From assembly GCA_042567505.1 (NCBI GenBank), contig JBHPJW010000004.1, positions 1,151 to 65,150 on the forward strand: a stretch of 64,000 nt of DNA, given 5' to 3'. The number at the start of each line of letters is the position of its first letter. Position 1 is the first letter of the stretch. The notes below the pieces were generated by a model. That model was not told the DNA's origin. It searched no databases and saw nothing but the letters and a program-made list of their open reading frames with translations. This stretch comes from Fibrobacterota bacterium (GTDB taxonomy: Bacteria; Fibrobacterota; Fibrobacteria; UBA11236; JADFYW01). The position numbers and the translations under genes are program-made. This document shows, in pieces, positions 9,392 to 43,135 of this stretch.

Positions 9392-10267
9392 ATGAAGGCG
9401 ACACTAGCGATTATTGAGTTGTTCCGGCCACTCCAATGGATCAAAAATATTGTTGTGCTGGCTGCAATCTTCTTTTCAGGGATGTTGTTGCAGCCTCAAT
9501 ACCTTCTCCCCAGTCTCACAGCTTTCATTTTATTCTGTTTAATTTCCAGCGCCATATATTGTATTAATGACATTGCCGACCTGGTAAGCGACAGGGAACA
9601 TCCGATTAAAAAAAGAAGGCCGCTCGCTTCCGGAAGGCTTTCGACATCCACAGCCATGATTTGTTCTCTAGTCCTCATAGCGGTATCACTGTCGTCCGCT
9701 TTCCTTTTTGACATCAAATTGTTCATGGTACTAGGAGCCTATTTTCTACTCAATTGCCTGTATTCTTTCTTCCTTAAAACCATAGTGCTGGTGGATATTT
9801 TTTGCATCGCGTTTGCTTTCTTACTCAGGATTCTCGCGGGGAGTTGGGCCATAGATATCGAGCCCTCTCAATGGTTTATTCTCTGCACATTCATGCTGAG
9901 CCTCTACCTGGGTTTCTGCAAACGTTACAGCGAGCTCATTGTCACCTCTACCCATGAGATAAAACCAAGGAAAGTGCTCACAAAATATTCTCCGATTTTT
10001 TTACAGATTTTAATAGGCGCCTGCATGTCGGCTACCCTGATAACATATGGCCTATACACGGTAAGTGAGCGGACGATGGAAGTGCACCATACATCAAGGT
10101 TTATCTATTCGTTTCCCATTGTCGCATTCGGGCTTTTCCGCTATACCTACCTTATCCTGTATCTTAAAGGCTTCGGGGAAGACACAGCTCGGGATTTAAT
10201 CAAGGATATTCAGCTCATTGCCACAGTGGTTGTCTATATAGCTTCCATTTTTGTTTTAATTGTCTAA
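9392..10267 (+). CDS. UbiA-family polytopic transferase, candidate polyprenyl-phosphate 5-phosphoribosyltransferase (Rv3806c-like)
   Basis: 291 aa with about 8-9 hydrophobic spans and the Asp-rich motif INDIADLVSDREH (NDxxDxxxD). It is followed directly by DprE1-like and DprE2-like genes. Confidence 0.7.
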   Translation: MKATLAIIELFRPLQWIKNIVVLAAIFFSGMLLQPQYLLPSLTAFILFCLISSAIYCINDIADLVSDREHPIKKRRPLASGRLSTSTAMICSLVLIAVSLSSAFLFDIKLFMVLGAYFLLNCLYSFFLKTIVLVDIFCIAFAFLLRILAGSWAIDIEPSQWFILCTFMLSLYLGFCKRYSELIVTSTHEIKPRKVLTKYSPIFLQILIGACMSATLITYGLYTVSERTMEVHHTSRFIYSFPIVAFGLFRYTYLILYLKGFGEDTARDLIKDIQLIATVVVYIASIFVLIV

Positions 10268-10393
10268 GAGACGGTGCTTTTTCAGTTGGCAGGATTTATT
10301 GTAGAGGAACGGGATTGGCTCCTTCTCCTTCACTTCTGACTTTTTTATCATAAGGTAGTTATCTCTACTCTCTAAAATCTTAACCTTACTCCT

Positions 10394-11743
10394 ATGACTC
10401 TTCCTACTACTCTCATGAACGGCTGGGGGCAGTTTCGCCCCCTTGAGGCGTTTGTCCAATTTCCCAGGTATCCTGAGGAAGCGATGGCAAGTGATGGTTA
10501 CGGGACTCATCCGAGGGGAAGGGGGAGGAGCTATGGAGACGCAGGCCTGCCTGCATCAGGATATGTGTCAGTTGACACTCGCTTTTTAGATAATTTTATC
10601 GATTTTGATGGGAACTCTGGCGTCTTAACCACAGAACCAGGGGTTACCCTCCAGCAGATTCTGAGGGACTTTGTTCCCAAAGGATATTTTCTTCCAGTCA
10701 CTCCGGGCACAATGTTTGTCAGTCTGGGTGGGGCGGTGGCCAGCAATGTGCACGGAAAAAATCACCATTGCCATGGATCCATTGAGCATTTCATCGAGGG
10801 CATGCAGGTCCAGACGCCGAAGGAACTGTTATGGTGCTCACGAAATGAAACCCCTGAACTATTTAATGCAACCGTGGGAGGATATGGCCTCACGGGTTTG
10901 ATACGGCAAATAAAACTCAAATTGCTTCCGATTGAAACTTCCTATATCAAAGAGCGCACAGTTAGATCTAAGAATCTGGAAGGTTTATTTCGATTGTTTA
11001 AAGAGGAAGATGGACATTACCCGTATTCTGTTGCCTGGATAGACGCTCTGGCCCGGGGGAAAGCCATGGGGAGGGGAGTTCTCATGTTGGGCCGGCATGC
11101 GGAAAGAAACGACCTTACAGGAAAAGAGAAGGAAAACTATTTAAGTCATACAAATTCAAAAAAAGGCAGTGTGCCGGTGAATATGCCGTCCTTTTTCTGT
11201 AATTCTTTTAACATGAAGGCTTTTAATTACCTGTTTTATAAAAAAAGTAGAGATCATGCGGGGGTTATAAAGAATTACGAGTCTTTTTTTTATCCTTTGG
11301 ATCGGCTCTTAAACTGGAACAGGATGTATGGAAAATCCGGATTTCTGCAATACCAGTGCTGTGTCCCGGATCCTCATAGCGAGGAAGGTATATCCAAGTG
11401 CCTGGAATTTTTAACTGACCGCAAACTGGGTTCCTTTCTTTCTGTCCTCAAACGTTGCGGGGATGATACCGTAGCGTTGCCGTTCTGCAAAAAAGGCTAT
11501 ACTCTTGCGCTCGATATACCTTATCGATCAGAAAAAACCCTGGAACACCTGGATGAACTGGACAAATTGGTGATTGAGTATAATGGCAAGGTATATCTGA
11601 CCAAAGATGCCAGATTATCTCCGGAAGCCTTCCGGGCCATGTATCCGGAATTTCCACGCTGGATGAGATCAATAAAAAAGTATAATCCGGATGGGAAAAG
11701 TTCCTCCCGGTTAGCAGAAAGGCTTGAATTATGGAAACTGTAG
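10394..11743 (+). CDS. FAD-linked oxidase, DprE1-like (polyprenyl-phospho-ribose 2'-oxidase candidate)
   Basis: 449 aa. Has GRGRSYGDAG near the N-terminus and a VAO/FAD_binding_4-type architecture. Its size and gene context match DprE1. Confidence 0.65.
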   Translation: MTLPTTLMNGWGQFRPLEAFVQFPRYPEEAMASDGYGTHPRGRGRSYGDAGLPASGYVSVDTRFLDNFIDFDGNSGVLTTEPGVTLQQILRDFVPKGYFLPVTPGTMFVSLGGAVASNVHGKNHHCHGSIEHFIEGMQVQTPKELLWCSRNETPELFNATVGGYGLTGLIRQIKLKLLPIETSYIKERTVRSKNLEGLFRLFKEEDGHYPYSVAWIDALARGKAMGRGVLMLGRHAERNDLTGKEKENYLSHTNSKKGSVPVNMPSFFCNSFNMKAFNYLFYKKSRDHAGVIKNYESFFYPLDRLLNWNRMYGKSGFLQYQCCVPDPHSEEGISKCLEFLTDRKLGSFLSVLKRCGDDTVALPFCKKGYTLALDIPYRSEKTLEHLDELDKLVIEYNGKVYLTKDARLSPEAFRAMYPEFPRWMRSIKKYNPDGKSSSRLAERLELWKL

Positions 11744-12465
11744 CCGTGTTTGGCTCAACGTCGGGTATCGCCAGGGCAGTGGTGGGAGAACTAATCAGCC
11801 AGGGATATAATGTCGTTCTCTGTGCCAGGAGCAGCGAGGCATTGGAAAGGCAGGCCCGGGATATCAAAGTTAAGCACGGGAAGCAGATCGAGACCATTAC
11901 ATGGGACGTGCTCGACTTCGGGCGCCATAGAGAAAAAGTAAAGCACCTTGTTGAAAATCACCATATTACCGGGGCAGTTATTGCTGTGGGAGTAATGCCC
12001 TCCCAGGAAGACAGTGAACAGAACTATGGCCTGATCCAGGAAGTGTTTCAGACCAACCTGACAGGTCCGGTCATACTCATGACTGCACTGGCTCATTATT
12101 TTCAGAAAAAAAGAAGTGGTTTTATATGTTGTATCTCTTCTGTGGCGGGTGACCGGGGGCGGCAAAGCAACGCTATCTATGGCTCGTCCAAAGGAGGACT
12201 ATCCACGTATCTGCAGGGACTCAGGAACAAGCTTGCCCCTTATCATGTATTGGTACAGACTGTGAAACCAGGACAGGTGAGAACGCCCATGACTGCCCAC
12301 ATGAAGGATTCTCCCTTATTTGCGGATCCTGAGCGGGTCGCCAAGGACATCGTCAAAGGTTTGGAAAAAAAACGGGAAGTTGTTTATTCGCCCTTTTACT
12401 GGAGAGTAATCATGGGTATCATCAGGATCATACCGGAGTTCCTCTTCAAGCGCATGAAGTTATGA
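11731..12465 (+). CDS. Short-chain dehydrogenase/reductase, DprE2-like
   Basis: 244 aa. Cofactor motif VFGSTSGIARAV and catalytic YGSSK (YxxxK). The start overlaps the preceding oxidase gene by 13 nt. Confidence 0.65.
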   Translation: METVAVFGSTSGIARAVVGELISQGYNVVLCARSSEALERQARDIKVKHGKQIETITWDVLDFGRHREKVKHLVENHHITGAVIAVGVMPSQEDSEQNYGLIQEVFQTNLTGPVILMTALAHYFQKKRSGFICCISSVAGDRGRQSNAIYGSSKGGLSTYLQGLRNKLAPYHVLVQTVKPGQVRTPMTAHMKDSPLFADPERVAKDIVKGLEKKREVVYSPFYWRVIMGIIRIIPEFLFKRMKL

Positions 12466-17147: not shown

Positions 17148-18065
17148 ATGAATCTCGGTTATATGCATAATCTTTATGCTGAGTCACTTTCGGAATTCGG
17201 GTCTGTGGTTGAATTGTCCCAATGTAGGGCATGGATTATCAGACGCCAGGTCCCGGACACCCAATTTTATGATGCCATGGGATGTTATCCTATTTTTTCC
17301 TGTGGAAAATGGTCCAAGCTTTATAATGATTTAGAGTCAATAAAGAAAGGCATAGTATGCTTATCAATGGTAACGGATCCCTTTGGCGATTATGAGGTTG
17401 ATTATCTGCGGAAATGTTTTCCTGACGTGGTCATTCCTTTTAAAAAACATTTTGTTATTGATTTAAGTGAGCGGCCGGAATCATTCGTAAGCTCACACCA
17501 CCTCAGGAATGCCCGTAAGGCCCTTGACAATCTTGAAATAGAATTTTGCAGGGAACCTGCGCAGTTTCTTAATGACTGGAATGGGCTCTATTCTGTTTTA
17601 ATCCAAAGGCATGGCATCAAAGGCATAACGGCCTTCTCAAAATCTTCTTTTAAAAAACAGCTGTCAGTGCCCGGTCTTTACCTGTTCCGGGCCCTTCATG
17701 AGGGCAGTACTGCCGGCATGATCCTGTGGTATGTCCAGGGACAGGTCGGATATTATCACCTGGGGGCCTATAGCGATACCGGGTATGATCATAAGGCCTC
17801 TTTCGCCCTGTTCCGGCATTGCATAGGTTTTTTTGCGGACCTGGGGCTTGAATGGCTCAGCCTGGGGGCCGGGGCCGGGGTGGCGAACGATCAGAAAGAC
17901 GGGCTGACCAGGTTCAAACAGGGATGGTCGACAGGAGAGAGAACGGCCTGGTTCTGCGGCCGGATTTATGACAAGCAAGAATATTCCAAGCTGGTAAAAT
18001 TGAAAAACGTCAGGGGCAGTGATTATTTTCCCGCCTATCGCAAGGGTGAGTTTGAGCAGGATTGA
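17148..18065 (+). CDS. FemAB-like / GNAT-fold acyl(aminoacyl)transferase
   Basis: 305 aa. The C-terminal half GMILWYVQGQVGYYHLGAYSDTGYDHKASFALF...DGLTRFKQGWS resembles the FemAB/BioF2-like GNAT family often found next to ACP genes in glycan loci. Confidence 0.5.
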   Translation: MNLGYMHNLYAESLSEFGSVVELSQCRAWIIRRQVPDTQFYDAMGCYPIFSCGKWSKLYNDLESIKKGIVCLSMVTDPFGDYEVDYLRKCFPDVVIPFKKHFVIDLSERPESFVSSHHLRNARKALDNLEIEFCREPAQFLNDWNGLYSVLIQRHGIKGITAFSKSSFKKQLSVPGLYLFRALHEGSTAGMILWYVQGQVGYYHLGAYSDTGYDHKASFALFRHCIGFFADLGLEWLSLGAGAGVANDQKDGLTRFKQGWSTGERTAWFCGRIYDKQEYSKLVKLKNVRGSDYFPAYRKGEFEQD

Positions 18066-18134
18066 GCCGTCAAGGTCAATTATTAATCGTTGATAACAGT
18101 TCATGGAGGACATATAATTAGAGGAAATCTATTT

Positions 18135-18368
18135 ATGGAACAGAAACTTATAGAATTAATATCATCTCTTTTAAGGCTGAAAAGGGAAGCTATCACTGAT
18201 TCCTTGTCCATGAAAGAAACGGATGTATGGGACTCGTTGAAGCACATGGAGTTGATAGTTTCCATTGAAGAGACTTTTGGGATTGAACTTCAAGTCAATG
18301 AAATATTAGCAATGCAGAGTGTGAAGGAAATCAAGAGAGTTCTCACGGAGAGGGGAGTAATGGATTGA
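18135..18368 (+). CDS. Acyl/peptidyl carrier protein
   Basis: 77 aa with the phosphopantetheine-serine context DVWDSLKHMELIVSIEETF. SD GAGGAAA lies 7 nt upstream of the ATG at 18135; the track start at 18090 is probably too long. Confidence 0.75.
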   Translation: MEQKLIELISSLLRLKREAITDSLSMKETDVWDSLKHMELIVSIEETFGIELQVNEILAMQSVKEIKRVLTERGVMD

Positions 18369-18369
18369 A

Positions 18370-19119
18370 ATGGAATTAAACGGTAAAAAGGCAATCGTCA
18401 CGGGAGGGGTGAGGGGAATCGGTTATGCCATAGTGAAACAGCTAATCGGAGAGGGAGCTCTGGTCGGCGTGTTTGACATCAATAGCGAAGGATTGAATGA
18501 AATCCAGGATGAGTATAAGGACATACGTACCTACCAGTGCGATCTTACTGAACCGCAGCAGGTCGAGGACTGCATTAACAGGTTTTTTGCCGAATGCGGT
18601 GAAATCAATATTCTAATAAACAATGCCGGCCTTCTTTTCAATTCCCCGCTGGTCCAGTTTTCCGCGGAGGGTATCAGAAAGCACGACATTAAAGCGTGGG
18701 ACAAGGCTATATCCATCAACCTGAGTTCCCTCTTCTACATGGCGGTGAATGTTGCGGAAAAAATGCTATTCAAGAGGACTAAGGGCGTCATCGCCAACAT
18801 AAGTTCTGTGTGCGCCTGCGGGAACAGGGGGCAGTCGGCCTATTCTGCAGCCAAGGCCGGAGTGAACGCACTTACCGCGACATGGGCGAAAGAATTAGGA
18901 GTAATGGGGATCCGGGTGGTCGGGATAGCTCCGGGTTACACAGACACGGAATCGACTCATCAGGTGCTGAATGAGGAGGTCTTGAAAGACATCAAGAGGG
19001 ACATACCCCTGAGGCGGCTGGGCAAGGCCGAAGAGATTGCCGAAGGGGTCGTTTCAGTAATAAGGAATGATTTTTTCAACGGCAAGGTCTTTGAGATTGA
19101 CGGAGGGCTGGTTTTATAA
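18370..19119 (+). CDS. SDR, 3-oxoacyl-ACP reductase (FabG)-like
   Basis: TGGVRGIGYA cofactor motif, NNAG, and catalytic YSAAKAG (YxxxK). Confidence 0.8.
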   Translation: MELNGKKAIVTGGVRGIGYAIVKQLIGEGALVGVFDINSEGLNEIQDEYKDIRTYQCDLTEPQQVEDCINRFFAECGEINILINNAGLLFNSPLVQFSAEGIRKHDIKAWDKAISINLSSLFYMAVNVAEKMLFKRTKGVIANISSVCACGNRGQSAYSAAKAGVNALTATWAKELGVMGIRVVGIAPGYTDTESTHQVLNEEVLKDIKRDIPLRRLGKAEEIAEGVVSVIRNDFFNGKVFEIDGGLVL

Positions 19120-19230
19120 TTTCATGCGCTGCCGCGGAAGAATGAGTTGGAACCTGACGCCGTCTTGACTTCCCATAAGGCTCGGGAGAAAATCGGCGGC
19201 CTGAATGAACACTGAATAAGAAAACATTAC

Positions 19231-20784
19231 ATGTACACCTACAATCTGGGCATTCGCTTTAATTCTGTTGCAGCAAAATACCCGGGCAATACGGCCTTGA
19301 AATTCAGTTCATCGGATTGTATTTCCTATGAAGAAATAAATAAGCTGTCCAACCGGTTGGCACGTTTCCTACTGGATAAAAAGATCTCTCGAGGCGACGT
19401 GGTATGCATTTCAGGCAGCAAAAAGGCGTCGACCTTTGCCGGAATGCTGGCCTGTCTGAAAACCGGCGCGGTCTACGCTATTCTCGATCCCGACAGCCCG
19501 GCTGAGAGGTTGAGAAAAATAATGGCCGCCTGCGGGCCAAAAGTGCTGCTGTGCGGGCCTCAGATGGAACAGAAACTCAGGAAAGCCTTGGGAGGGCTTG
19601 AAATCATTACCAATGAGCAGAGGGAATTAAAAGGAAAAATTTCCGGTTATGAGGAAACGATCCCGGAACAGGCTCATGCGGTGACGGGCTCAGACCCGGC
19701 TTATATCATGTTTACTTCCGGCTCCACGGGTTTCCCAAAAGGCGCTGTTATGAGCCACGCCAACGTGCTCAATCTCATAGACTGGAGCCATGATACCTAC
19801 GGCATTACCCCGGATGATGTCCTTACCAATGTCAACCCCGTCTACTTCGACAATTCAGTATTTGATTTTTATTCGGCGCTTTTTTCCGGCGCGGCCCTGG
19901 CGTCTTTCACTAAAGATACGGTAACAGACGCAAAAACGCTGGTGGACATGATTGACGAACTGAAATGCACGCAGTGGTTTTCAGTGCCCACCCTGCTTAT
20001 TTTCCTTCAGACCATGAAAGTCCTGAACAGCGAAAATTTGCTGCATATAAAAAGGATAATATTCGGGGGCGAGGGCTATCCGAAGGCCAAGCTGAAAAAG
20101 CTCTTTGATTTATATTCAGGCAGGATCGATTTCTTTAATGTGTACGGACCCACCGAATGCACTTGTATATGCTCGTCTTATAAGCTTTCCTCAGAAGACT
20201 TTAAAGACCTGAGCGGGTTTCCCCCCTTAGGGGAAATGATAAAAAATTTTTCCTATCTGATACTGGATACCAAAAACAGGAAGGTCAAGGACAATGAGAC
20301 AGGGGAGCTGTGCCTGCTGGGCCCGAACGTGGGAATGGGCTACTATAATGACCCGGAAAGGACCGGCTCGGCGTTTGTTCAGAATCCCTATAACCAGAGC
20401 CATGCCGAAGTGATGTATAAAACGGGAGATATGGTGAGGTACAATCCCAAAGACGGAAAAGTGTACATAGGCGGCAGGAAGGACAACCAGATCAAGCACA
20501 TGGGGTACCGCATCGAGCTGGAGGAGATTGAAACGGCGCTCAGCTGCCTGGATTACATTTCCCAGTCCGCGGTCCTACACGGCAGTTCAAGGGGATTAAG
20601 CCGGATCATTTCGGTAGTAAGCGCGAAAAAGGAAATAAATGAGGAGACCATCCGAGGTGATCTTAAACGGATTATTCCGGAATATATGGTGCCTTCTGAA
20701 TTTCATATTATAGATGAACTGCCCCGGAATCCCAATGGAAAGGTAGACAGGAAACGGCTGGCAGATGAATATTTAAACCAATAA
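19231..20784 (+). CDS. Stand-alone adenylation enzyme (AMP-dependent ligase, DltA-like size and motifs)
   Basis: 517 aa with MFTSGSTGFPKG, NVYGPTE, YKTGD, GRKDNQIKHMGYRIELEEIE and PRNPNGKVDRKRL. No condensation or thioesterase domain is present. Confidence 0.8.
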   Translation: MYTYNLGIRFNSVAAKYPGNTALKFSSSDCISYEEINKLSNRLARFLLDKKISRGDVVCISGSKKASTFAGMLACLKTGAVYAILDPDSPAERLRKIMAACGPKVLLCGPQMEQKLRKALGGLEIITNEQRELKGKISGYEETIPEQAHAVTGSDPAYIMFTSGSTGFPKGAVMSHANVLNLIDWSHDTYGITPDDVLTNVNPVYFDNSVFDFYSALFSGAALASFTKDTVTDAKTLVDMIDELKCTQWFSVPTLLIFLQTMKVLNSENLLHIKRIIFGGEGYPKAKLKKLFDLYSGRIDFFNVYGPTECTCICSSYKLSSEDFKDLSGFPPLGEMIKNFSYLILDTKNRKVKDNETGELCLLGPNVGMGYYNDPERTGSAFVQNPYNQSHAEVMYKTGDMVRYNPKDGKVYIGGRKDNQIKHMGYRIELEEIETALSCLDYISQSAVLHGSSRGLSRIISVVSAKKEINEETIRGDLKRIIPEYMVPSEFHIIDELPRNPNGKVDRKRLADEYLNQ

Positions 20785-20828
20785 GACTGATTAACTACAG
20801 GGAATTGTTCTCTTAAGGAGGAAAAGCC

Positions 20829-21500
20829 ATGAGCAAGATTGTAATATTTGGAGAGGGAAAAATCGCAGACGAGGCGTATTTCTATCTCACTAATGACAGT
20901 CCGCATGAGATTGCCGCTTTTACCGCAGATGCCGATTATATCTCCAAAAAGGAAAAGTTCGGCCTGCCGATCATTCCTTTTGAGGAAATCCTGGACAGGT
21001 ATCCGCCGGATGATAATAAGATGTTTGTCGCTTTGGGATACCAGAACCTGAACAAGCTGCGGGCGGAAAAATACCGGGAATGTAAAGAGAAAGGCTACAG
21101 TCTAATAAGTTATGTCAGCTCAAAAACCGGAAATTTCGGAAACGTGGAAATTGGCGACAATTGCTTTATCCTTGACAACGCCACAATGCAACCTTGTTGC
21201 AGAATAGGAAACAACGTTACGATATGGAGTAATAATCTGATTGGACATCACTCCGTAGTCGAAGACCACTGTTATATTGCGGGTAATGTAACAATATCCG
21301 GAAACACAACCATTGGCGCTTATTGCTTTATTGGTGTGAATGCCTGTATCGGTCATGAACTGCAAATCGGTGAAGAATGCATGATTGGGGCCCGCTCTCT
21401 CATAACAAAAAGCACTGAACCCAAGAGCGTTTTCATCGAACAGGACACGGAAAAGTTTAGGCTGGACAGCTCGTCATTTGTGAAAATGACAAGGCTTTGA
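20829..21500 (+). CDS. Left-handed beta-helix (hexapeptide) sugar N/O-acyltransferase, PglD/NeuD-like
   Basis: N-terminal Rossmann-like KIVIFGEGKIA, then a run of hexapeptide repeats (IGDNCFI..., IGNNVTI..., IAGNVTISGNTTIGAYCFIGVNACIG...). Strong SD AAGGAGG. Confidence 0.8.
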   Translation: MSKIVIFGEGKIADEAYFYLTNDSPHEIAAFTADADYISKKEKFGLPIIPFEEILDRYPPDDNKMFVALGYQNLNKLRAEKYRECKEKGYSLISYVSSKTGNFGNVEIGDNCFILDNATMQPCCRIGNNVTIWSNNLIGHHSVVEDHCYIAGNVTISGNTTIGAYCFIGVNACIGHELQIGEECMIGARSLITKSTEPKSVFIEQDTEKFRLDSSSFVKMTRL

Positions 21501-21567
21501 TTACATACAATTCAAATCCAAGAAATGGTAAATGGTAATGCCGACATGTAAGCTAAAGGAGTGAAAA

Positions 21568-22572
21568 ATGGATAAGGAACATCCTTTTATTTGCCCGGAG
21601 ACCTTAAGGCCTTTTACATTAGAAGTGGAAAAAGAGGAACAAAACCAAGTAGTGGAAGGGCGCCTCATATCAGAGAATAAAGTTATTTATCCAATACATA
21701 ACGGCGTTCCAGATCTTGTTTTTCCAAGGGTCCTGCCTGAAGAGGATCAAAGCGCTAAAAACTGGTATGACGACAACGCTGATGTATATGATGATTTTTT
21801 ACCTTTAACTTTTGATACTTTTTCTGTTGACGAACTGGCTATCCGGCGGGAGATGGTGTCTCAACTCGATTTAAAACCGGATTATAAAGTCCTGGAGACG
21901 GGGTGCGGCACAGGTAGGGATTCCGTCTTGATCGCCGAGCATCTCGGAGAAAACGGAGAACTGCACCTGCAGGACATTTCTTATAAAATATTAGAGAAGA
22001 GTTTTGATAAAATGAAAGAATATAAAACTCATATTACCTTCTCTCTTTCAAATGCATGTTACCTGCCGTTTCCTGATAATTATTTCGATGTTTATTACCA
22101 TTTCGGGGGATTTAATACGTTTTCAGAGAAGAAACGCGCATTTTCCGAGATTAGCAGGGTAACCAAAATTGGGGGCAAGGTAATTGTTGGGGATGAGAGC
22201 ATGCCGTCATGGCTGAGAAGCACTGATTTCGGAAAAATACTCATGAATTCGAATCCTCACTATAAATATGAACTGCCTCTTGAGTATATGCACGTTTCGG
22301 CAAGAGACGTGTCCTTGCATTGGATAATAGGGGGCGTATTTTATTACCTGAGCTATACTATTGGAGAAGGTGAACCCGATGCTAATTTGGATTTTGAGAT
22401 TCCCGGTCCCAGAGGAGGAACGCACAGGACAAGGTATTTCGGACATATTGAAGGCGTGTCGGAAGAAGTTATTGACTTAGCGAGAAAGGCCAGGGAAAAG
22501 ACTGGAAAAAGCATGTACAGGTGGCTGGATGACGCTATTAAGAAGGCGGCAAAGGATGATCTTGGCATTTAG
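21568..22572 (+). CDS. Class I SAM methyltransferase with an N-terminal Trm112-like segment
   Basis: N-terminus FICPETLRPF...IYPIHNGVPDLVFP, then motif I VLETGCGTGRDS. An acidic residue follows the second strand. Confidence 0.7.
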   Translation: MDKEHPFICPETLRPFTLEVEKEEQNQVVEGRLISENKVIYPIHNGVPDLVFPRVLPEEDQSAKNWYDDNADVYDDFLPLTFDTFSVDELAIRREMVSQLDLKPDYKVLETGCGTGRDSVLIAEHLGENGELHLQDISYKILEKSFDKMKEYKTHITFSLSNACYLPFPDNYFDVYYHFGGFNTFSEKKRAFSEISRVTKIGGKVIVGDESMPSWLRSTDFGKILMNSNPHYKYELPLEYMHVSARDVSLHWIIGGVFYYLSYTIGEGEPDANLDFEIPGPRGGTHRTRYFGHIEGVSEEVIDLARKAREKTGKSMYRWLDDAIKKAAKDDLGI

Positions 22573-22593
22573 CATTTTAGGCAAGGAACAGTT

Positions 22594-23370
22594 ATGAAAA
22601 AGAAAGTTACATATGACGCAGGCTATAGGGATTTTTATGATAAAAAAGAGAAAGAGCATTGGGATTTGCTAGAAAAGGCCATCCAGAAGGCGGATATTCC
22701 ATTAAACGAAGTAATGAAAAATTATGCCGCATATATAAGAAGGAGAGACATGCCCAGGCTTTTGGCCCATTATGAACTGTTCAGGATGGTAGAAAACCTG
22801 CCTGGCTCTATAGTAGAACTGGGCGTTTTTCTGGGTGCGGGATTGTTTACGTTCGCGAAATTACTGGAAACCTTCGTGCCCGGCGACAGGAGCAGGAAGG
22901 TTTATGGTTTTGATAATTTTAAAGGTTATCCTGATTTTACGGAAAAAGACGGTCAGGCTTTGCCATGGGTTAAGAAATTAATAGGAAATAAAAAATCAAA
23001 ATTATCATATATTGAGGATATGGTAAGGCTCCACAATAACGATAATCTCATTCCAGGGGTCGAGAGGGTTAAAATTATCCCGGGAGATATCAAAGATACT
23101 GTGCCTGAGTTTGTCAAGAGTTCCCTAGGTATGAGAATAAGCCTGCTTTATTTTGACGTTAATATATATGAACCAACAAAGGTAGGTCTGGAATTTCTGT
23201 ATCCGTTGGTGATTCCAGGGGGCGTAGTCGCGTTCAATGCTTATGGGGCGCCTCCCTGGGAAGGGGAGGCGAATGCAATAGAGGAATATTTTTCCAACCT
23301 CGGCAGGCAACCGGTAATGAATAAATTTTCTTTTTCAACACATCCCAGCGCTTATTTTATTAAAGAGTAA
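22594..23370 (+). CDS. TylF/MycF-type (macrocin-O-methyltransferase-like) sugar O-methyltransferase
   Basis: GSIVELGVFLGAG motif I, and LLYFDVNIYEPT resembling the metal/substrate region of the TylF family. Confidence 0.6.
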   Translation: MKKKVTYDAGYRDFYDKKEKEHWDLLEKAIQKADIPLNEVMKNYAAYIRRRDMPRLLAHYELFRMVENLPGSIVELGVFLGAGLFTFAKLLETFVPGDRSRKVYGFDNFKGYPDFTEKDGQALPWVKKLIGNKKSKLSYIEDMVRLHNNDNLIPGVERVKIIPGDIKDTVPEFVKSSLGMRISLLYFDVNIYEPTKVGLEFLYPLVIPGGVVAFNAYGAPPWEGEANAIEEYFSNLGRQPVMNKFSFSTHPSAYFIKE

Positions 23371-23390
23371 AACCTGTAAAGGAAATCCTT

Positions 23391-24332
23391 ATGAAATTCT
23401 CAAAAAAGGGATTGATTTTTTGCCCAAAAGGCGAACATAAGTTCATGAATAGCCATGCTCAAGTGCCTACTATACTGGAAGGTGAAAAACATTTCAGAGT
23501 ATATTTTTCCACAAGGCCCAATCCCAAATTAAGCCTGACCACCTTTTTAGATATAGACAAAAACAATCCCAAAAAAGTGATTTACCTGCACGACAAATCA
23601 ATTATCCCCTGTGGGGGACCTGGGACCTTTGATGAATTTGGCGTGATGCCCAGTACAGTTGTAAGGAAAGAGGGCGTTGTGTACATGTTCTATACGGGAT
23701 GGAGCAGAGGCGAAACGGTTCCTTATTTGAATGCTGTGGGATTGGCGGTTAGCGAAGATAATGGTAAAACATTTGAGAAACACAGCAAAGGCCCGATTAT
23801 AGAAAGAAGAGAGCATGAACCATTTTCCGCCATGTCGCCTTATGTGCTCTATGAGCATGGAACTTGGCACATGTGGTATTCTTCAGGCACCGGTTGGTAT
23901 AAATCAAAGGTAAAGTATGAGCCTATTTATTTGATAAAATATGCGAAATCGACTGACGGGATACATTGGAACCAAACAAATATCATATCGATTAATCCTA
24001 AAAATGAGCTTGAGGCCATGACAAGGCCCTCGGTAGTAAAAATTGCCGATAAATACCACATGTGGTTTTGCTATAGAGACAGTCTTGATTATCGGGGTGG
24101 GCGGGGGAGTTATAGAATAGGGTATGCTGATTCAGATGATATGATTAACTGGAGGCGTAAGGATTCAAAAGCAGGAATTACGGTTTCGAAAAAAGGATGG
24201 GATTCTGTCATGGTCCAATACCCCCAAATAATAAAATTAAAAAATAAACTTCTCATGTTCTATAATGGAAATGGTTTTGGGGCGTCAGGCATAGGGTACG
24301 CCGTGGGTGAAATGAATAAGATTAAATTATAA
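23391..24332 (+). CDS. Beta-propeller protein resembling GH32/43/130-clan glycosidases or phosphorylases
   Basis: Repeated blade-like segments GVVYMFYTGW, GTWHMWYSSG, KYHMWFCYRD and KLLMFYNGNG. No signal peptide. The assignment is by pattern only. Confidence 0.4.
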   Translation: MKFSKKGLIFCPKGEHKFMNSHAQVPTILEGEKHFRVYFSTRPNPKLSLTTFLDIDKNNPKKVIYLHDKSIIPCGGPGTFDEFGVMPSTVVRKEGVVYMFYTGWSRGETVPYLNAVGLAVSEDNGKTFEKHSKGPIIERREHEPFSAMSPYVLYEHGTWHMWYSSGTGWYKSKVKYEPIYLIKYAKSTDGIHWNQTNIISINPKNELEAMTRPSVVKIADKYHMWFCYRDSLDYRGGRGSYRIGYADSDDMINWRRKDSKAGITVSKKGWDSVMVQYPQIIKLKNKLLMFYNGNGFGASGIGYAVGEMNKIKL

Positions 24333-24351
24333 TTTAATCAGGATTAAAGAG

Positions 24352-25575
24352 ATGACTATAAAAAAAATTTCTGAACTTGCATCCTTCAACGGCAGGCCAT
24401 TTTTTAATCGAAAGCTTCATGTTGGCCAGCCCAATATCGGCAACAGGGAGAATTTGATAAGAAGGATAAATAAAATACTTGACAAAAAATGGCTTACCAA
24501 CGCTGGTCCATATGTTCAAAAGTTTGAACGGCAAATTGCCGAATATGTCGGCGTAAAACATTGTATAGCGATGTGCAACGGGACTATTGCGTTGGAAAAT
24601 GCTATTAGGGCGCTGGACCTGAGCGGCGAGGTCATTGTTCCGTCTTTTACTTTCGTTGCCACTCCAAATTCTCTGCAATGGCAGGAGATTGCGCCAGTCT
24701 TCTGTGACATCAATCCCGAGACGTTTACTATTGATCCCATGCAGATTGAAAGATTGATAACCCCAAGAACTACTGGGATTATCGGTGTTCATTTATGGGG
24801 AAGAATCTGTGATATAGATAAACTGTCTGAAGTGGCGGAGCATTATAAGCTGAAGTTGTTGTTTGACGCGGCCCATTCGTTCGGTTGTTCCTACAAAGGA
24901 AAAATGATAGGGGGATTTGGAGAGTTGGAGGTGTTCAGTTTTCATGCCACTAAGTTTTTAAACACGCTTGAAGGCGGAGCAGTGGTTACTAACAATGATA
25001 ACTTGGCGGTTAAAATACGCCTTATGAAGAATTTTGGGTTTACTGATTACGATAAGGTCGATTATATCGGCGTGAACGGAAAGATGAACGAAATTTCAGC
25101 AGCAATGGGCATTACAGGACTGGAGTCAATTGAATATTTTATTGATACCAATAAAACCAATTTTAATCTCTACCAGAAGGAACTTGAGGGCCTGAAAGGG
25201 ATAAAAGTGCTGCCTTATAATGAAAGCGAAAAATGCAACTATCAGTATGTCGTGCTTACTATTAATGAAAAAACTGCTCAAATCAGCCGAGATCAGCTCA
25301 TATCCTTATTGCATTCAGAAAACATACTGGCGCGCAAGTATTTTTATCCGGGTTGCCACCGCATGGAGCCATATCGGTCCTTTTTTCCTCATGCGGGTTT
25401 ATTATTGCCTCAGACCGAAAGGATGGCGGAAAAAACGGTTGTTCTGCCGACAGGGACCTCAATCAATAAAGATGATATTGCAAATATATGTGATATTATT
25501 AAAATTATAATTAATAACGCGCCGGAAATACAGCTTCAGGCATCTCAGATTAAAAAGCAGAACACCATGCATTAG
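24352..25575 (+). CDS. DegT/DnrJ/EryC1/StrS-family PLP sugar aminotransferase (second)
   Basis: FDAAHS and the PLP-lysine context FSFHATKFLNTLEGG. The antisense ORF 24334..24792 is a shadow of this gene. Confidence 0.85.
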   Translation: MTIKKISELASFNGRPFFNRKLHVGQPNIGNRENLIRRINKILDKKWLTNAGPYVQKFERQIAEYVGVKHCIAMCNGTIALENAIRALDLSGEVIVPSFTFVATPNSLQWQEIAPVFCDINPETFTIDPMQIERLITPRTTGIIGVHLWGRICDIDKLSEVAEHYKLKLLFDAAHSFGCSYKGKMIGGFGELEVFSFHATKFLNTLEGGAVVTNNDNLAVKIRLMKNFGFTDYDKVDYIGVNGKMNEISAAMGITGLESIEYFIDTNKTNFNLYQKELEGLKGIKVLPYNESEKCNYQYVVLTINEKTAQISRDQLISLLHSENILARKYFYPGCHRMEPYRSFFPHAGLLLPQTERMAEKTVVLPTGTSINKDDIANICDIIKIIINNAPEIQLQASQIKKQNTMH

Positions 25576-25725: not shown

Positions 25726-27336
25726 ATGACCTCTCTTTTAAAGGGAAAAAAGTACCAACTGTTATTCAGGAATAATATCATTTATGATCTTCTAATGAAG
25801 AATATTATTCTAAGCAGAAGCTCTGACTCCAATGATATGACTTTAAAAAAAATTAGTAATCTGGCGAATTTTTCATGGTTTAATCATCCGGGTTTTTTTG
25901 CTGACGGTAAACTGGAGAATATGGCCTTTGAAATAGGCGCGAACTTAAAAGATGATGCGTATTGTGATCAAACTATTGTAAGCAGAGTAAGACGGGAATT
26001 TGAAAGGGAAACCAAAAAGAAGAACCTGCTGGTTGCAACACAATTGTATGATATCGGCGGACATACAAAAGTAATAGACAAGTTTATCAGGGATGATGTG
26101 GAATCGTCACACTTGATTGTTTTGACAAAGCAGAATAAAAAAATGCCAGAATGGTTGGAAGAGAACGCTGCTGAAAGCAAGGTTCCTGTTATTTGTCTGG
26201 AAACTGGTTCGTCGGTTGGAAGGGCTTCGACCTTAAGAAGCATAGCAAAGTATTTTGACAGGGTTTTACTCTTTATCCATCCGCATGATGAAATTCCCAT
26301 AGTCGCTTTTTCCGTTAAGATGGATCAGGTCGTGTTCATTGAAAACCACGCGCATTTCTGGTTTTGGCTGGGGATTACCGTAGGAGATGTGGTTTTCAGC
26401 CATTTGAAATATATGGATAGAATTGTCAAGGAAAGACGGCGTGCGAAAAATAGTTTCTATTTCCCTTTGGCCTATAAAAGGATCGCTGAAGATGATAACA
26501 ACAGGTTAAGCAAAAAAGAGGCAAAAGAGAAGATCGGGCTAGATCCGGATTGTTTTCTTATTGTTACAATAGGATCAAGAGAAAAATACGCGCCGAACAA
26601 GAGATATAATTTTTTCCTGACGGCTGAGAAAATTTTAAACAAAAATCCTTTTGTAACTATTGTGGTTATTGGCGTTGATTACCAGGATGGCTTTGTAAAA
26701 AAATATGTGCCAAAAAAAAATGATCGGATGAAATTACTAGGTCCGGTATGGAAACCTTACAAGTACTATGAAGCGGCAGATATAATCTTGGAATCATTTC
26801 CCTTATCGTCAATTGGGCCAATTTATGAAGCTGTCGTCTATCATGACGTATGTCCTTTATTCGCTTACGGTGAAGAAACAAACATACTGACATGCCAAAG
26901 AGAGGTTGCTGACCCTGTTATAGCGTTGGATGAAGAGGAGTATTTAAATGATTTGGATAAATTGGTAATGGATTCTCACTTGCGGGATAAGGTTACGAAA
27001 GAGGTAAAAGACCTTTTTATTAAAAGAGACATGGCGTTTTATGATTACCTCAACAAGATGTATCAGGATTATGATGGAATCAAACACGCACCGGCAAGAA
27101 TTCCGAAAGCTGTTTTCGAACCTGATCACAATGATCTGGAACTGGCGGGCGTGAGCAGAATGAAGACCTTCTCCAGTATATTTTCTTTTCTGGACAGGAC
27201 TTATCTTAAATTAAGGTTGATTGAAAAGCTCAGGATTCTTTTCTTCTTTTTCATAAGAGGCATGTTCTGGCCGGAATATTTCCGCATGGCGATAAATTTA
27301 CCGCGGAAAGTTTTGTTACTTTTTAATAAGACATGA
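25726..27336 (+). CDS. Unassigned 536-aa protein, possibly GT-B-fold glycosyltransferase-like; start uncertain
   Basis: Rossmann-like LLVATQLYDIGGHT and a second half FLIVTIGSREKY...TIVVIGV...MKLLGPV...YYEAADIILESFP reminiscent of GT-B C-domains. The stop overlaps the wzm start (ATGA). Several internal Met residues could be the true start. Confidence 0.35.
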   Translation: MTSLLKGKKYQLLFRNNIIYDLLMKNIILSRSSDSNDMTLKKISNLANFSWFNHPGFFADGKLENMAFEIGANLKDDAYCDQTIVSRVRREFERETKKKNLLVATQLYDIGGHTKVIDKFIRDDVESSHLIVLTKQNKKMPEWLEENAAESKVPVICLETGSSVGRASTLRSIAKYFDRVLLFIHPHDEIPIVAFSVKMDQVVFIENHAHFWFWLGITVGDVVFSHLKYMDRIVKERRRAKNSFYFPLAYKRIAEDDNNRLSKKEAKEKIGLDPDCFLIVTIGSREKYAPNKRYNFFLTAEKILNKNPFVTIVVIGVDYQDGFVKKYVPKKNDRMKLLGPVWKPYKYYEAADIILESFPLSSIGPIYEAVVYHDVCPLFAYGEETNILTCQREVADPVIALDEEEYLNDLDKLVMDSHLRDKVTKEVKDLFIKRDMAFYDYLNKMYQDYDGIKHAPARIPKAVFEPDHNDLELAGVSRMKTFSSIFSFLDRTYLKLRLIEKLRILFFFFIRGMFWPEYFRMAINLPRKVLLLFNKT

Positions 27337-28211
27337 GCAAAGAGCGAGCAAACCAAAACTCCAAGGTTGAGAAATCCGGGCTCGATTCACAGGCCGAGAT
27401 ATCAGTTATTGAACCTGTGAGCGGCTGGCGGCTTGTAGACTTTAAAGAGGTGTGGGCATATAAAGACCTCCTTTATTTTTTAGTTTGGCGGGACGTTAAA
27501 GCCAGATACGCCCAATCTGTATTAGGAATCGGCTGGGCGGTCATACAGCCTGTTTTCCGCATGATAGTCTTCACGATTATTTTTGGGAGACTGGCAAAAA
27601 TAAATTCTGACGGTGTTCCCTATGCCATTTTCAGTTACGTGGCTCTGGTGCCCTGGACCTATTTTTCCAGCGCTCTTGGGGGCGCCAGTTCCAGTGTTAT
27701 CGGTTCGTCGGGCATGCTGACCAAGGTGTATTTCCCCAGGTTGATAATACCGCTGTCCAGCGTTTTTAGCAAACTGGTTGATTTTATCATTGCTTTTTTC
27801 ATTGTTTTCGGATTGCTGTTATATTATAAGATGGCCCCTACCATGTGGGTTATCGTGTCGCCTTTGCTGGTCTTGATAATGATGCTTTCCGCCGCGGGAT
27901 TGGGCATGTGGCTTACGGCTCTGGCTGTCCAGTACCGGGATATAAATTATGCCATGAGTTTTCTTATACAAATACTCATGTATGCCGCGCCAGTCGTATA
28001 TCCTTTGAGTCTGATACCGGAAAGATACCACCTGATTTACAGCATAAATCCCATGGTATCGGTCATTGAAGGATTCCGGTCCGCTTTCCTGGCCACAAAT
28101 CCCATGCCATGGGACTTGATAGGGATTGGGATGATCTCAGCTGTTGTGTTATTTACAACAGGAACGCTTTATTTCCGCCGGATGGAACGCATTTTCGCAG
28201 ACGTGGTTTAA
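27333..28211 (+). CDS. wzm: ABC-2 type polysaccharide export permease (Wzm)
   Basis: WRDVKARYAQSVLGIGWAVIQP N-terminal signature followed by about 6 TM spans. Confidence 0.85.
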   Translation: MSKERANQNSKVEKSGLDSQAEISVIEPVSGWRLVDFKEVWAYKDLLYFLVWRDVKARYAQSVLGIGWAVIQPVFRMIVFTIIFGRLAKINSDGVPYAIFSYVALVPWTYFSSALGGASSSVIGSSGMLTKVYFPRLIIPLSSVFSKLVDFIIAFFIVFGLLLYYKMAPTMWVIVSPLLVLIMMLSAAGLGMWLTALAVQYRDINYAMSFLIQILMYAAPVVYPLSLIPERYHLIYSINPMVSVIEGFRSAFLATNPMPWDLIGIGMISAVVLFTTGTLYFRRMERIFADVV

Positions 28212-28328
28212 TGAAATCGAGCATAATGTATATCCATTGACATGAACACAAAATTAATATGATATCATTTAGAAGAATGTGCTGATGATGTTCACCTTCA
28301 TCTCAGGCAGTAAACATTCGACAAAAGG

Positions 28329-29636
28329 GTGAAAAGTTATTCCATGACAGAAACCGTTATTTCCATTCAGGGTATAGGCAAACGCTACCGCATTGGCCTG
28401 GAAGAGGAGAAACATGATACCTTTTTCGGGAAGCTTGTGGCCCAGATAAGCGCGCCGGTACGTAATTTAAAAAAGCTTAAAAGCCTGACCTCTTTTAAAA
28501 AAACAGCGGACGGGGAATCGGAAGATATAATCTGGGCGCTGAAAAATGTTTCTTTCGATATTTTCCAGGGTGAGATAGTAGGGCTGATAGGGCTGAATGG
28601 GGCGGGGAAGTCCACCCTTCTTAAAATTTTATCAAAGATAACTGTTCCGACAAACGGGAAGGCTACGATTAAAGGGAGAATCGGCAGTTTGCTGGAGGTG
28701 GGCACAGGATTCCATCCGGAATTGACGGGACGGGAAAATGTCTACCTGAACGGCACTATCCTGGGAATGAGCAAAAAGGAAATTGACAGGAAGTTTGAGG
28801 AGATTGTGGAATTCTCAGAAGTGGGGAAATTCATTGATACTCCGGTAAAGAGGTATTCCTCCGGAATGAGGGTTAGACTGGGATTTTCGGTAGCCGCCCA
28901 TCTTGACCCGGAAATCCTTCTCATCGATGAAGTGCTGGCGGTTGGTGATGTGGCGTTCCAGCAGAAATGCCTGGGGAAAATGGGAGACGTTGCCACGGAG
29001 GGGCGGACAGTGGTGTTCGTCAGCCATAACATGGAGATGATCCAGCGTCTGTGCCCCCGCACCATCCTGCTTGAAAATGGAGAGAAGAAAGGCGATGGGG
29101 ACACGAATGATATCATCAGCATGTATTTTAATCAGCCGTTCTTAAAAGTAAAGAAAAGCGATTCACTCTATGACGCCCCGCGAAAAAAGCAATACGGAAA
29201 GCTCATAAGGTTTACGTCTTGCATGATATTAAACGCGCAAGGAGAAAATGAAAACGCCTTGCGGCTGGGAGAGCCCTTTACCATAGTTATGGAGGCGGTT
29301 GCCCTGAAGGATATGCTGCATGTGGATTTCAGCATCTTCATAGAGACGTCAACGCGAATCATGGTCAATTCACATTATGTACATGAAAGCAACAAACTTC
29401 TCGACATAAAAAAAGGACAGACTGTTAAAATATCTTTTTTCTATGACCAGTTTATCCTTAACACCGGGAAATATGTGATAACCACAGCTGCATACCAGAA
29501 CAAATGGGCGATAGATGTTATCTGGGCGGCAACCGAGTTTGAGATTTCAAAGATAAATTATTCCAAAGCACAGCATTTCCTCCCCACGAACGGACTGATT
29601 CGGCATAATCCCGAGGTAAATATTTCGAAAGAATAA
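28329..29636 (+). CDS. wzt: Polysaccharide ABC exporter ATP-binding protein (Wzt) with a ~190-aa C-terminal extension
   Basis: Walker A GLNGAGKST, signature YSSGMRVRLGFS and Walker B ILLIDEVLAVGD. An additional C-terminal domain starts at about residue 250. GTG start, with an alternative ATG at 28344. Confidence 0.85.
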   Translation: MKSYSMTETVISIQGIGKRYRIGLEEEKHDTFFGKLVAQISAPVRNLKKLKSLTSFKKTADGESEDIIWALKNVSFDIFQGEIVGLIGLNGAGKSTLLKILSKITVPTNGKATIKGRIGSLLEVGTGFHPELTGRENVYLNGTILGMSKKEIDRKFEEIVEFSEVGKFIDTPVKRYSSGMRVRLGFSVAAHLDPEILLIDEVLAVGDVAFQQKCLGKMGDVATEGRTVVFVSHNMEMIQRLCPRTILLENGEKKGDGDTNDIISMYFNQPFLKVKKSDSLYDAPRKKQYGKLIRFTSCMILNAQGENENALRLGEPFTIVMEAVALKDMLHVDFSIFIETSTRIMVNSHYVHESNKLLDIKKGQTVKISFFYDQFILNTGKYVITTAAYQNKWAIDVIWAATEFEISKINYSKAQHFLPTNGLIRHNPEVNISKE

Positions 29637-42896: not shown

Positions 42897-43135
42897 ATAC
42901 TGAAGACGTACTCAAAGAAATGAACGAGATTTTTATTGATGTGCTTGAACTTGATGATATAGACTTAAAAGCCGAGACCACCACAGATGATGTGGAAGAG
43001 TGGGATTCCCTGACACATATTCCCCTGATAGCCGCCATAGAGAGCCATTTTAAAATTAAGTTCAAATCATCGGAAATTCAGAACTGGAAAAATGTCGGCG
43101 AAATGTGTGACGCGGTCATCGGCAAAGCCGGGTAG
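42893..43135 (+). CDS. Acyl carrier protein (second)
   Basis: 80 aa with EEWDSLTHIPLIAAIESHF, the same WDSL-type serine context as the ACP at 18135. ATGA overlap with the FkbH-like gene. Confidence 0.75.
   Translation: MNTEDVLKEMNEIFIDVLELDDIDLKAETTTDDVEEWDSLTHIPLIAAIESHFKIKFKSSEIQNWKNVGEMCDAVIGKAG

Follow-up and report, generated by a model that had tools for sequence, protein, structure and literature searches.

We examined positions 17148-21500 of a 64-kb window (the whole stretch of DNA that was analysed) from a member of the Fibrobacterota, where an initial annotation made from the letters alone had described five adjacent genes as a carrier-protein cassette acting on amino sugars. According to the list of open reading frames, all five genes are intact, lie on the + strand and span exactly this interval. 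They are part of a nine-gene module at 17148-25575, a tailoring module of which we propose them to be the acyl-building half. Domains were called with Pfam and NCBIfam at their curated cut-offs.

The first gene (17148-18065; 305 amino acids, aa) encodes a transferase with a predicted FemX fold of tandem GNAT domains and matches PF13480 Acetyltransf_6 at 33.6 bits against a cut-off of 22. It is followed on the same strand by an acyl or aminoacyl carrier protein (ACP; 18135-18368; 77 aa counted from its ATG, with an alternative TTG start at 18090), which contains the sequence DVWDSLKH and matches PF00550 PP-binding at 33.8 bits against 20.8. The third gene (18370-19119; 249 aa; adh_short, E 1e-48) specifies a classical short-chain dehydrogenase/reductase (SDR) related to FabG and CylG, with the motifs TGGVRGIG and YSAAK. 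Then come a stand-alone amino-acid adenylation (A) enzyme of the nonribosomal peptide synthetase type (19231-20784; 517 aa), composed of AMP-binding (E 2e-76) and AMP-binding_C domains, and a left-handed beta-helix (LbH) N-acyltransferase (20829-21500; 223 aa; Hexapep, E 5e-22), which passes the NeuD/PglB/VioB family model TIGR03570 over residues 3-202 with 166.6 bits against 160.8.

Spacing between these genes is 1-111 nt, and the start codon of the SDR gene lies 1 nt past the ACP stop codon, a gap from which the two genes appear to be translationally coupled. The lengths of the products agree with those of homologues (A enzyme 517 against 517-521 aa, SDR 249 against 249, acyltransferase 223 against 224). 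In a promoter and terminator scan, promoter-like and terminator-like sites were no commoner than in shuffled sequence, and a scan against Rfam matched zero families.

Four more + strand genes complete the module. A UbiE-type S-adenosylmethionine (SAM) methyltransferase with a Trm112-like N-terminal zinc ribbon (21568-22572; called with Pfam and NCBIfam) is a frequent module member, and a TylF-type methyltransferase (22594-23370; PF05711, E 8e-14) an occasional one. The next gene (23391-24332), a universal core member, encodes a five-bladed beta-propeller resembling GH130 and GH43 proteins, recognised by its structure model and Foldseek, with no signal peptide noted. The last (24352-25575) encodes a DegT/DesI-like, pyridoxal phosphate (PLP)-dependent sugar aminotransferase, scoring 499.7 bits with TIGR04427 PLP_DesI, below the equivalog cut-off of 650.

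Conservation and distribution of the module

Eighty species-representative loci of A-enzyme homologues were searched with all proteins of the window, and neighbours were counted within 10 kb of the A enzyme in the 42 loci from other genomes that have full 10-kb flanks (full-flank loci). SDR, LbH acyltransferase and propeller accompany the A enzyme in all 42 of these, and ACP in 41, so the cytoplasmic propeller is linked to the A enzyme as tightly as the ACP is. Any DegT-type sugar aminotransferase is present in 38, the UbiE-type methyltransferase in 31, the PF13480 GNAT in 9 and, at the threshold used, the TylF-type methyltransferase in 6. Since the same neighbours recur at A-enzyme homologues in 80 species-representative genomes from many phyla, adjacency of the cassette genes is far from chance. 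The five genes named by the initial annotation are real, yet incomplete as a set: the recurrent core consists of ACP, SDR, A enzyme, LbH acyltransferase and GH130-like propeller, and the FemX-like gene is not a fixed member but one of two alternative partners of this core.

Three homologue contigs, with Myxococcota/Deltaproteobacteria and Acidobacteriota among their sources, repeat the gene order of the window, that is PF13480 GNAT, ACP, SDR, A enzyme, LbH, UbiE-type methyltransferase, GH32/43/130-like protein, optionally TylF-type methyltransferase, and DegT, followed by glycosyltransferases. This order was seen in Acidobacteriota, Verrucomicrobiota and one Myxococcota genome. The order of proteobacterial type runs methyltransferase, propeller, LbH, ACP, SDR, PF12746 GNAT, A enzyme; in Pseudomonas sp. 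MAC6 the cassette is flanked by WbqC-like, GT2 and GtrA genes. In this locus (L080:1442-14843), as in many proteobacterial loci, the GT2 gene stands with a gene for a GtrA-like flippase subunit, a layout that resembles bactoprenol-linked, periplasmic glycan modification systems; the same locus also encodes a 623-aa protein without a Pfam match. In one deltaproteobacterial metagenome-assembled genome (L001:2789-21566), the cassette stands after csrA and fliW and before a gene for a TPR-GT41 protein, and here flagellin, not a polysaccharide, may be the decorated target.

Besides Acidobacteriota and Verrucomicrobiota, the module occurs in Planctomycetota, Bacteroidota, Cyanobacteriota, Desulfovibrionaceae, Legionellaceae, Rickettsiales and many other Pseudomonadota. 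Within the phylum of the window, a relative of the A enzyme (43% identity) was found in one of 200 other genomes sampled, and none in four genomes of the same family or in 22 genomes from a family tallied as belonging to the same order. Phyla are intermixed on the A-enzyme tree, where the window groups with Acidobacteriota, Verrucomicrobiota and Myxococcota, and GC content jumps from 0.395 (16-18 kb) to 0.477 (18-20 kb). From the single relative among 200 genomes, the phylum-mixed tree and the GC step we conclude that the module was probably acquired horizontally. Among plasmid records, zero relatives of the A enzyme were found at E 1e-80. Comparison of AMP-binding matches revealed a single A enzyme of cassette type in the genome; the other strong match, on contig C186, is 19.5% identical and has no cassette neighbours, so it is not a second copy.

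The wider locus contains many methyltransferases, a B12-radical SAM enzyme and FkbH, and at its head stands a row of genes for a UbiA-type prenyltransferase, a DprE1-like FAD enzyme and a DprE2-like SDR (9392-12465). Three DegT-type aminotransferases (starting at 12716, 24352 and 33534), the transporter pair Wzm/Wzt (27333-29636) and an MBOAT gene (36950-38386) were found just as the initial annotation had claimed. Several closely related cassettes have a Wzm/Wzt pair immediately before them (loci L008-L016). We considered that the cassette product could be a chain-end cap read by the C-terminal domain of Wzt and rejected this, as the Wzt homologues align with Wzt of the window (28329-29636) over the ATPase part only; the C-terminal domain is unconserved between the window and related cassette loci.

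The MBOAT gene had been taken, together with a DltD-like gene (38473-39423), as the missing half of a system with all four Dlt roles, and co-occurrence of the two blocks had been named as a check. Two of the 42 full-flank loci contain an MBOAT gene no more than 10 kb from the A enzyme; FkbH, DltD-like and radical SAM genes occur at this distance in 0 of 42 each. In the opposite direction, none of 80 loci of the closest MBOAT homologues contains the A enzyme or ACP of the cassette. The DltD-like gene is present, but its identity as DltD is weak, the GDSL-lipase match being below cut-off (E 0.0026). The MBOAT block has a loader and a carrier of its own: a second ACP gene (42893-43135; 80 aa; EEWDSL; PF00550) overlaps the FkbH stop codon by an ATGA at 42893-42896. 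By these gene arrangements, we take the module to be independent of the MBOAT block 16 kb downstream.

Properties of the module's enzymes

With TIGR01733, the model for amino-acid adenylation, the A enzyme scores above the cut-off (353.1 against 317.4 bits). Its core motifs A3, A5, A7, A8 and A10 can be read in the translation as FTSGSTGFPKG, NVYGPTE, YKTGD, GRKDNQIKHMGYRIELEEIE and NGKVDRK, respectively, and condensation and thioesterase domains are absent, in agreement with the initial annotation. The best 120 of more than 7700 database relatives share 58-67% identity with it, come from many phyla and are mostly auto-annotated as DltA. Solved relatives at similar distance include A domains of linear gramicidin synthase, PheA, SrfA-C, prolyl ligases of PltF type and DltA, the last at about 208 bits. 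We judged DltA membership by curated model cut-offs, in place of a phylogeny with bona fide DltA proteins. The A enzyme fails both DltA models, TIGR01734 (301.7 against 559.85) and NF003417 (311.9 against 476), and the ACP fails the DltC model NF003464 (21.2 against 68). The DltA model is discriminating, because only 2 of 14 control genomes exceed its cut-off; five Firmicutes and other genomes reached through cassette loci contain no DltA above it.

Residues of the substrate pocket were read by anchoring on the FDxS, xPT, GGE, NxYGPTE and GK motifs, with PheA numbering. This reading, already envisaged in the initial annotation, yielded the code DNFFIGVCIK, which favours an aminoacyl substrate. 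Of 82 aligned homologues, with overall identity down to about 42%, 81 fit DNFF[V/I/S/T/A]GVCIK. Asp235 is present in all 82 and Lys517 in 81, the remaining homologue, itself one of the 81, ending at a contig end before this position. Conservation of Asp235 and Lys517 points to an alpha-amino acid, not a fatty or 3-oxo acid, as the substrate, and the near-invariance of the pocket points to a single substrate for the whole family. The nearest canonical code is that for Ile, DGFFLGVVYK, and summed side-chain volumes of the pocket are closer to those of Val, Ile and Leu pockets than to those of Gly, Ser and Thr pockets. The substrate is therefore likely to have a mid-sized aliphatic side chain, possibly hydroxylated, which we regard as a lead and not as a determination.

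The ACP has the Ser attachment motif DVWDSL and falls below every AcpP and DltC equivalog cut-off; on these features it appears to be a dedicated carrier protein. The SDR fails all FabG cut-offs (for example TIGR01830, 186.5 against 297.75, and NF004197, 175.1 against 332). Among solved structures, CylG and 3-oxoacyl-ACP reductases are closest to it. Most SDR homologues have Asp at the end of beta-2 (VFD, VAD). In classical SDRs, Asp at this position goes with preference for NAD(H), not NADPH, and would mark the enzyme as of NAD(H) type, unlike FabG. Because the SDR always adjoins the ACP, we suppose that it acts on the carrier-bound residue or, as proposed for VioR, on the sugar-bound one.

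Closest solved relatives of the LbH enzyme by sequence are LpxD (54.6 bits), PglD (51), PerB (40) and VioB (33.6), scores too close to each other to indicate the acyl donor. In either main arrangement its gene has the ACP or A-enzyme gene as a direct neighbour, and we propose that the enzyme moves the carrier-bound residue onto the sugar amine.

The product of 17148-18065 gave an AlphaFold model with a predicted local distance difference test score (pLDDT) of 93.5. Its best Foldseek match is FemX of Weissella (template modelling (TM) score 0.71, E 4e-14), and the label FemAB-like holds at the level of fold. The top 30 matches comprise the FemX/FemA family, aminoacyl-phosphatidylglycerol synthase domains of MprF, the aminoacyl-tRNA-dependent peptide synthases Sbb17 and Sba18 and two function-unassigned proteins, so that most are aminoacyl-tRNA-dependent transferases. 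By sequence, the protein matches PF13480 only and not the FemAB family model, with one weak solved-structure match (9wqy, E 0.018). Weissella FemX and Sbb17/Sba18 have the same tandem-GNAT fold at 12-17% sequence identity, and the latter two aminoacylate the amine of an amino-sugar-containing acceptor (streptothrisamine in the entry title). Judging by the model, the protein probably transfers aminoacyl groups; relative to the core it is an accessory. Two FemX-like homologues contain in-frame stops (one in L024:12280-13206, seven in L035:4054-4989) and represent either decayed genes or assembly errors.

Using genes of the Pseudomonas locus as queries in 84 loci, we found the second partner. A WbqC-like protein (PF08889) is encoded in 49 loci (for example at L080:3187-3999) and a FemX-like one in 24, and the two never occur together (0 of 84). 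Neither was found in 11 loci, nine of which are cut contigs, while L033 and L041 have full flanks. No homology between the two families is detectable (hhalign probability 0.3%), and a search with the WbqC profile matched zero solved structures. On the A-enzyme tree the partner switches at least four times, at least three of the switches being forced by well-supported branches, and all of 500 label shuffles needed more partner changes than were observed. This pattern suggests non-orthologous replacement in one step of the same pathway. WbqC takes its name from the Escherichia coli O121 locus, where the O-unit carries N-acetylglycyl-Qui4N, and this would fit an aminoacylating role of WbqC. WbqC has been described as a protein without known function (PMC5532660).

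The propeller model has a pLDDT of 96.2. Foldseek matches it best to BT_0996 and to GH130 beta-1,2-mannoside phosphorylases (TM 0.71-0.73), and Asp81, Arg229, Tyr241, Arg256 and Asp271 are invariant in the alignment. Homologues of the DesI-like aminotransferase, with 54-66% identity, follow the cassette in those loci that are most closely related; by its family, this enzyme probably makes the acceptor amine, a 4-amino-4,6-dideoxyhexose. The TylF-type enzyme is probably a sugar O-methyltransferase.

Proposed pathway and its precedents

Tetronate genes of the Vibrio cholerae O1 rfb region (rfbK-O, also wbeK-O), the example given by the initial annotation, provide ACP, AMP-forming ligase, reductases and an acetyltransferase-like enzyme for an N-acyl group on perosamine, a 4-amino-6-deoxyhexose. 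That system differs from the module in the families of its ligase and reductases, which are LuxE/LuxC-like and iron alcohol dehydrogenase-like, and in attaching an acid other than an amino acid.

Among characterised systems, the viosamine island of Pseudomonas syringae pv. tabaci 6605 comes closest. In it, vioA, vioB, acp, vioR, vioS and vioM are responsible for N-(3-hydroxybutanoyl)-2-O-methyl-viosamine; the island also contains vioT and has a counterpart in the flagellin glycosylation island of P. aeruginosa PAK (PMC3927599). A sugar 4-aminotransferase, an N-acyltransferase of VioB/NeuD type, a dedicated ACP, a FabG-like SDR and a methyltransferase are common to the island and to the module, which has all five at 17148-25575, and the genes of the island are genetically tied to an N-acylated, O-methylated 4-amino-4,6-dideoxyhexose. 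The island starts its acyl chain with the KAS-III ketosynthase VioS, whereas the module has no ketosynthase and an A enzyme instead. An SDR of NAD(H) type, a FemX-like or WbqC-like protein and the GH130-like propeller are found in the module only. The target of the island is flagellin, that of the module would be a polysaccharide exported by Wzm/Wzt.

The nearest predicted system is wfpC-wfpG of Flavobacterium psychrophilum, in which the predicted acyl donor for the PglD homologue WfpG is WfpD, an ACP specific to the O-polysaccharide (PMC6519341). This block shares with the module the PglD/NeuD-type acyltransferase, the dedicated ACP and a ketoacyl-ACP reductase, but builds a 3,5-dihydroxyhexanoyl group with two ketosynthases and without an adenylation enzyme, the assignment itself being a prediction.

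A stand-alone A enzyme and a carrier serving an envelope glycoconjugate are also known from Dlt systems (DltA, DltC, DltB, DltD, DltX) and from AlmEFG of V. cholerae, which attaches glycine to lipid A (PMC4278540). The module differs from both in that its genes are linked neither to an MBOAT/DltD pair nor to a lipid acyltransferase of AlmG type; its acceptor is most likely a cytoplasmic nucleotide sugar, and its transferase a hexapeptide or FemX-fold enzyme. In lincosamide synthetase (A enzymes LmbC/CcbC, carrier LmbN), an amino acid likewise ends up amide-bonded to an amino sugar, but by a different condensation with mycothiol and ergothioneine chemistry and in secondary metabolism, not on a surface glycan (PMC4351081). 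In literature on WbqC, on adenylation enzymes with ACPs in O-antigen loci and on 5-oxoprolyl side chains, we found no publication on this cassette or its product.

We consider it reasonably probable that the module puts an amino-acid-derived N-acyl group on a nucleotide-linked amino-deoxyhexose of a polysaccharide exported by Wzm/Wzt. The broader claim of the initial annotation, a carrier-dependent, non-acetyl group on an amino sugar, is supported by the DegT-type aminotransferases at 38 of the 42 full-flank loci and by the glycan loci in which the module stands across many phyla. Where that annotation had left open an acyl or an aminoacyl group, the TIGR01733 match, Asp235 and Lys517 speak for the aminoacyl option and not for a 3-hydroxyacyl one.

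Domain types, the invariant pocket, the fold of the GNAT protein and the co-occurrence of the genes are observed; in the scheme that we propose, we infer the substrate, the donor for each transferase and the order of steps. The DesI-like aminotransferase would, by its family, supply a nucleotide-linked 4-amino-6-deoxyhexose, and the A enzyme would activate one alpha-amino acid and load it onto the dedicated ACP. The SDR of NAD(H) type may then carry out a hydroxy/oxo redox reaction on the carrier-bound or sugar-bound residue, which is the least certain step. Because of strict co-occurrence and the viosamine and wfp precedents, we assign to the NeuD/VioB-type hexapeptide transferase the putative step in which the sugar amine receives the residue from the ACP. 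The FemX-fold enzyme would add or extend an aminoacyl unit, for which aminoacyl-tRNA, the donor of its characterised structural relatives, is the simplest source; in other genomes the WbqC-like protein would fill this slot. Methyltransferases would finish the sugar or the side chain.

Several points weigh against this scheme. In an aliphatic amino acid the SDR would find no obvious hydroxy or oxo function to act on, so that the loading and redox steps do not yet fit each other, and the match to Ile/Val-type codes comes from canonical codes and motif anchoring, not from a trained predictor, and is itself a lead. Characterised enzymes of the NeuD/PglD/VioB family use acyl-CoA, and the use of acyl-ACP is predicted only, both here and in F. 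psychrophilum. The FemX-like/WbqC-like slot could instead hold the enzyme that unloads the ACP, and the scheme leaves the universal propeller without a step to perform. The genome, which is 66% complete, yielded neither a dTDP-glucose 4,6-dehydratase above cut-off nor a phosphopantetheinyl transferase.

A more specific product was rejected, namely a 3-hydroxy-dimethyl-5-oxoprolyl group formed from threonyl-ACP by oxidation, N-acetylation, C-methylation and cyclisation: the pocket is unlike Thr codes and the window has no small GNAT.

Competing explanations and implications

The alternative that survives best exchanges the roles of the two transferases. The sugar amine would receive its aminoacyl group from the ACP through the FemX-fold or WbqC-like enzyme, and the LbH enzyme would be an ordinary acetyl-CoA-dependent N-acetyltransferase capping the sugar or the amino acid. 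Gene order agrees with this, the FemX-like gene directly preceding that of the ACP in the window as well as in the loci related most closely, as does the presence of one partner or the other in all but 11 of the 84 loci. The structural relatives are aminoacyl transferases, Sbb17/Sba18 acting on an acceptor that contains an amino sugar, and PglD and VioB, of the acyl-CoA-using family, are among the sequence relatives of the LbH enzyme. Nevertheless we think this exchange unlikely, since characterised FemX-fold relatives all use aminoacyl-tRNA and none a carrier protein, and two families unrelated by hhalign would both need to recognise one aminoacyl-ACP. It is the LbH enzyme that is the strictly universal transferase of the 42 full-flank loci and that adjoins the ACP or A enzyme in both main orders.

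We also raise, tentatively and as a possibility of rather low probability, a hybrid line of glyco-peptide type, in which a single amino sugar would receive one amino-acid unit from the NRPS-like pair of A enzyme and ACP and another from a tRNA-dependent enzyme of Fem type, so as to bear a short, peptide-like side chain. WbqC-like proteins would be the non-homologous substitute for the Fem-type enzyme, and the propeller would have a new role in the pathway, one other than hydrolysis.

The chemistry raised by the initial annotation is a different one: a non-amino, short 3-oxo or 3-hydroxy acid would be activated, reduced on the ACP and transferred, giving a 3-hydroxyacyl amide like that of modified viosamine or anthrose. 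The solved relatives of the SDR, its translational coupling to the ACP and the viosamine island, which makes its 3-hydroxybutanoyl group with ACP, FabG-like and VioB-like enzymes, are in line with such a product. The loader, in contrast, is an amino-acid enzyme by its TIGR01733 match, with the alpha-amino-binding Asp235 in every family member compared; a ketosynthase is among the recurrent genes in none of the 84 loci; and the SDR has the NAD(H)-type Asp, as against NADPH in FabG, and lies below all FabG equivalog cut-offs. The argument from a FabG-like reductase to a 3-hydroxyacyl group thus finds no support, and we regard this chemistry as improbable.

Stand-alone pairs of A enzyme and ACP occur in many small-molecule pathways, and the universal propeller has no assigned role in glycan tailoring. 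A non-glycan product, such as a small aminoacyl metabolite or a lipid head group, with the setting in glycan loci being coincidental, is nonetheless very improbable: DegT-type aminotransferases accompany nearly all full-flank loci, glycosyltransferases, Wzm/Wzt or GT2 with GtrA flank the cassette in very different phyla, and TIGR03570, the family of the LbH enzyme, is one of nucleotide-sugar N-acyltransferases.

Weakest of all is a split Dlt-like pathway, in which A enzyme and ACP would feed the MBOAT/SGNH-like pair 16 kb downstream and an exported polymer would be acylated outside the cytoplasm: four protein types on one strand of one long locus, an A enzyme no more distant from DltA than, roughly, from other A domains and the two full-flank loci with MBOAT speak for it, but the wide failure of the DltA and DltC models, the lack of co-occurrence in both directions, the FkbH-ACP pair of the MBOAT block and the constant setting of the A/ACP pair among cytoplasmic nucleotide-sugar enzymes speak against it, and we reject the view that the cassette is one half of a Gram-positive-style D-alanylation system.

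The module is most likely an intact, widely distributed variant of ACP-dependent N-acylation of amino sugars, with an A enzyme replacing the ketosynthase. A pair of A enzyme and ACP together with a distant MBOAT gene should accordingly not be read as a Dlt system by default. If the glyco-peptide line is true, it would give the first functional assignment for the WbqC-like family PF08889, and the exchange between FemX-like and WbqC-like proteins is a testable hint on the role of the WbqC family. As the pocket is invariant, an answer for one member would carry over to thousands of genes that at present bear the wrong label 'D-alanine--poly(phosphoribitol) ligase'. Antigenicity of the bacterial surface and its recognition by phages and by the immune system are shaped by unusual N-acyl groups of amino sugars, and very few pathways for such groups have been assigned to genes.

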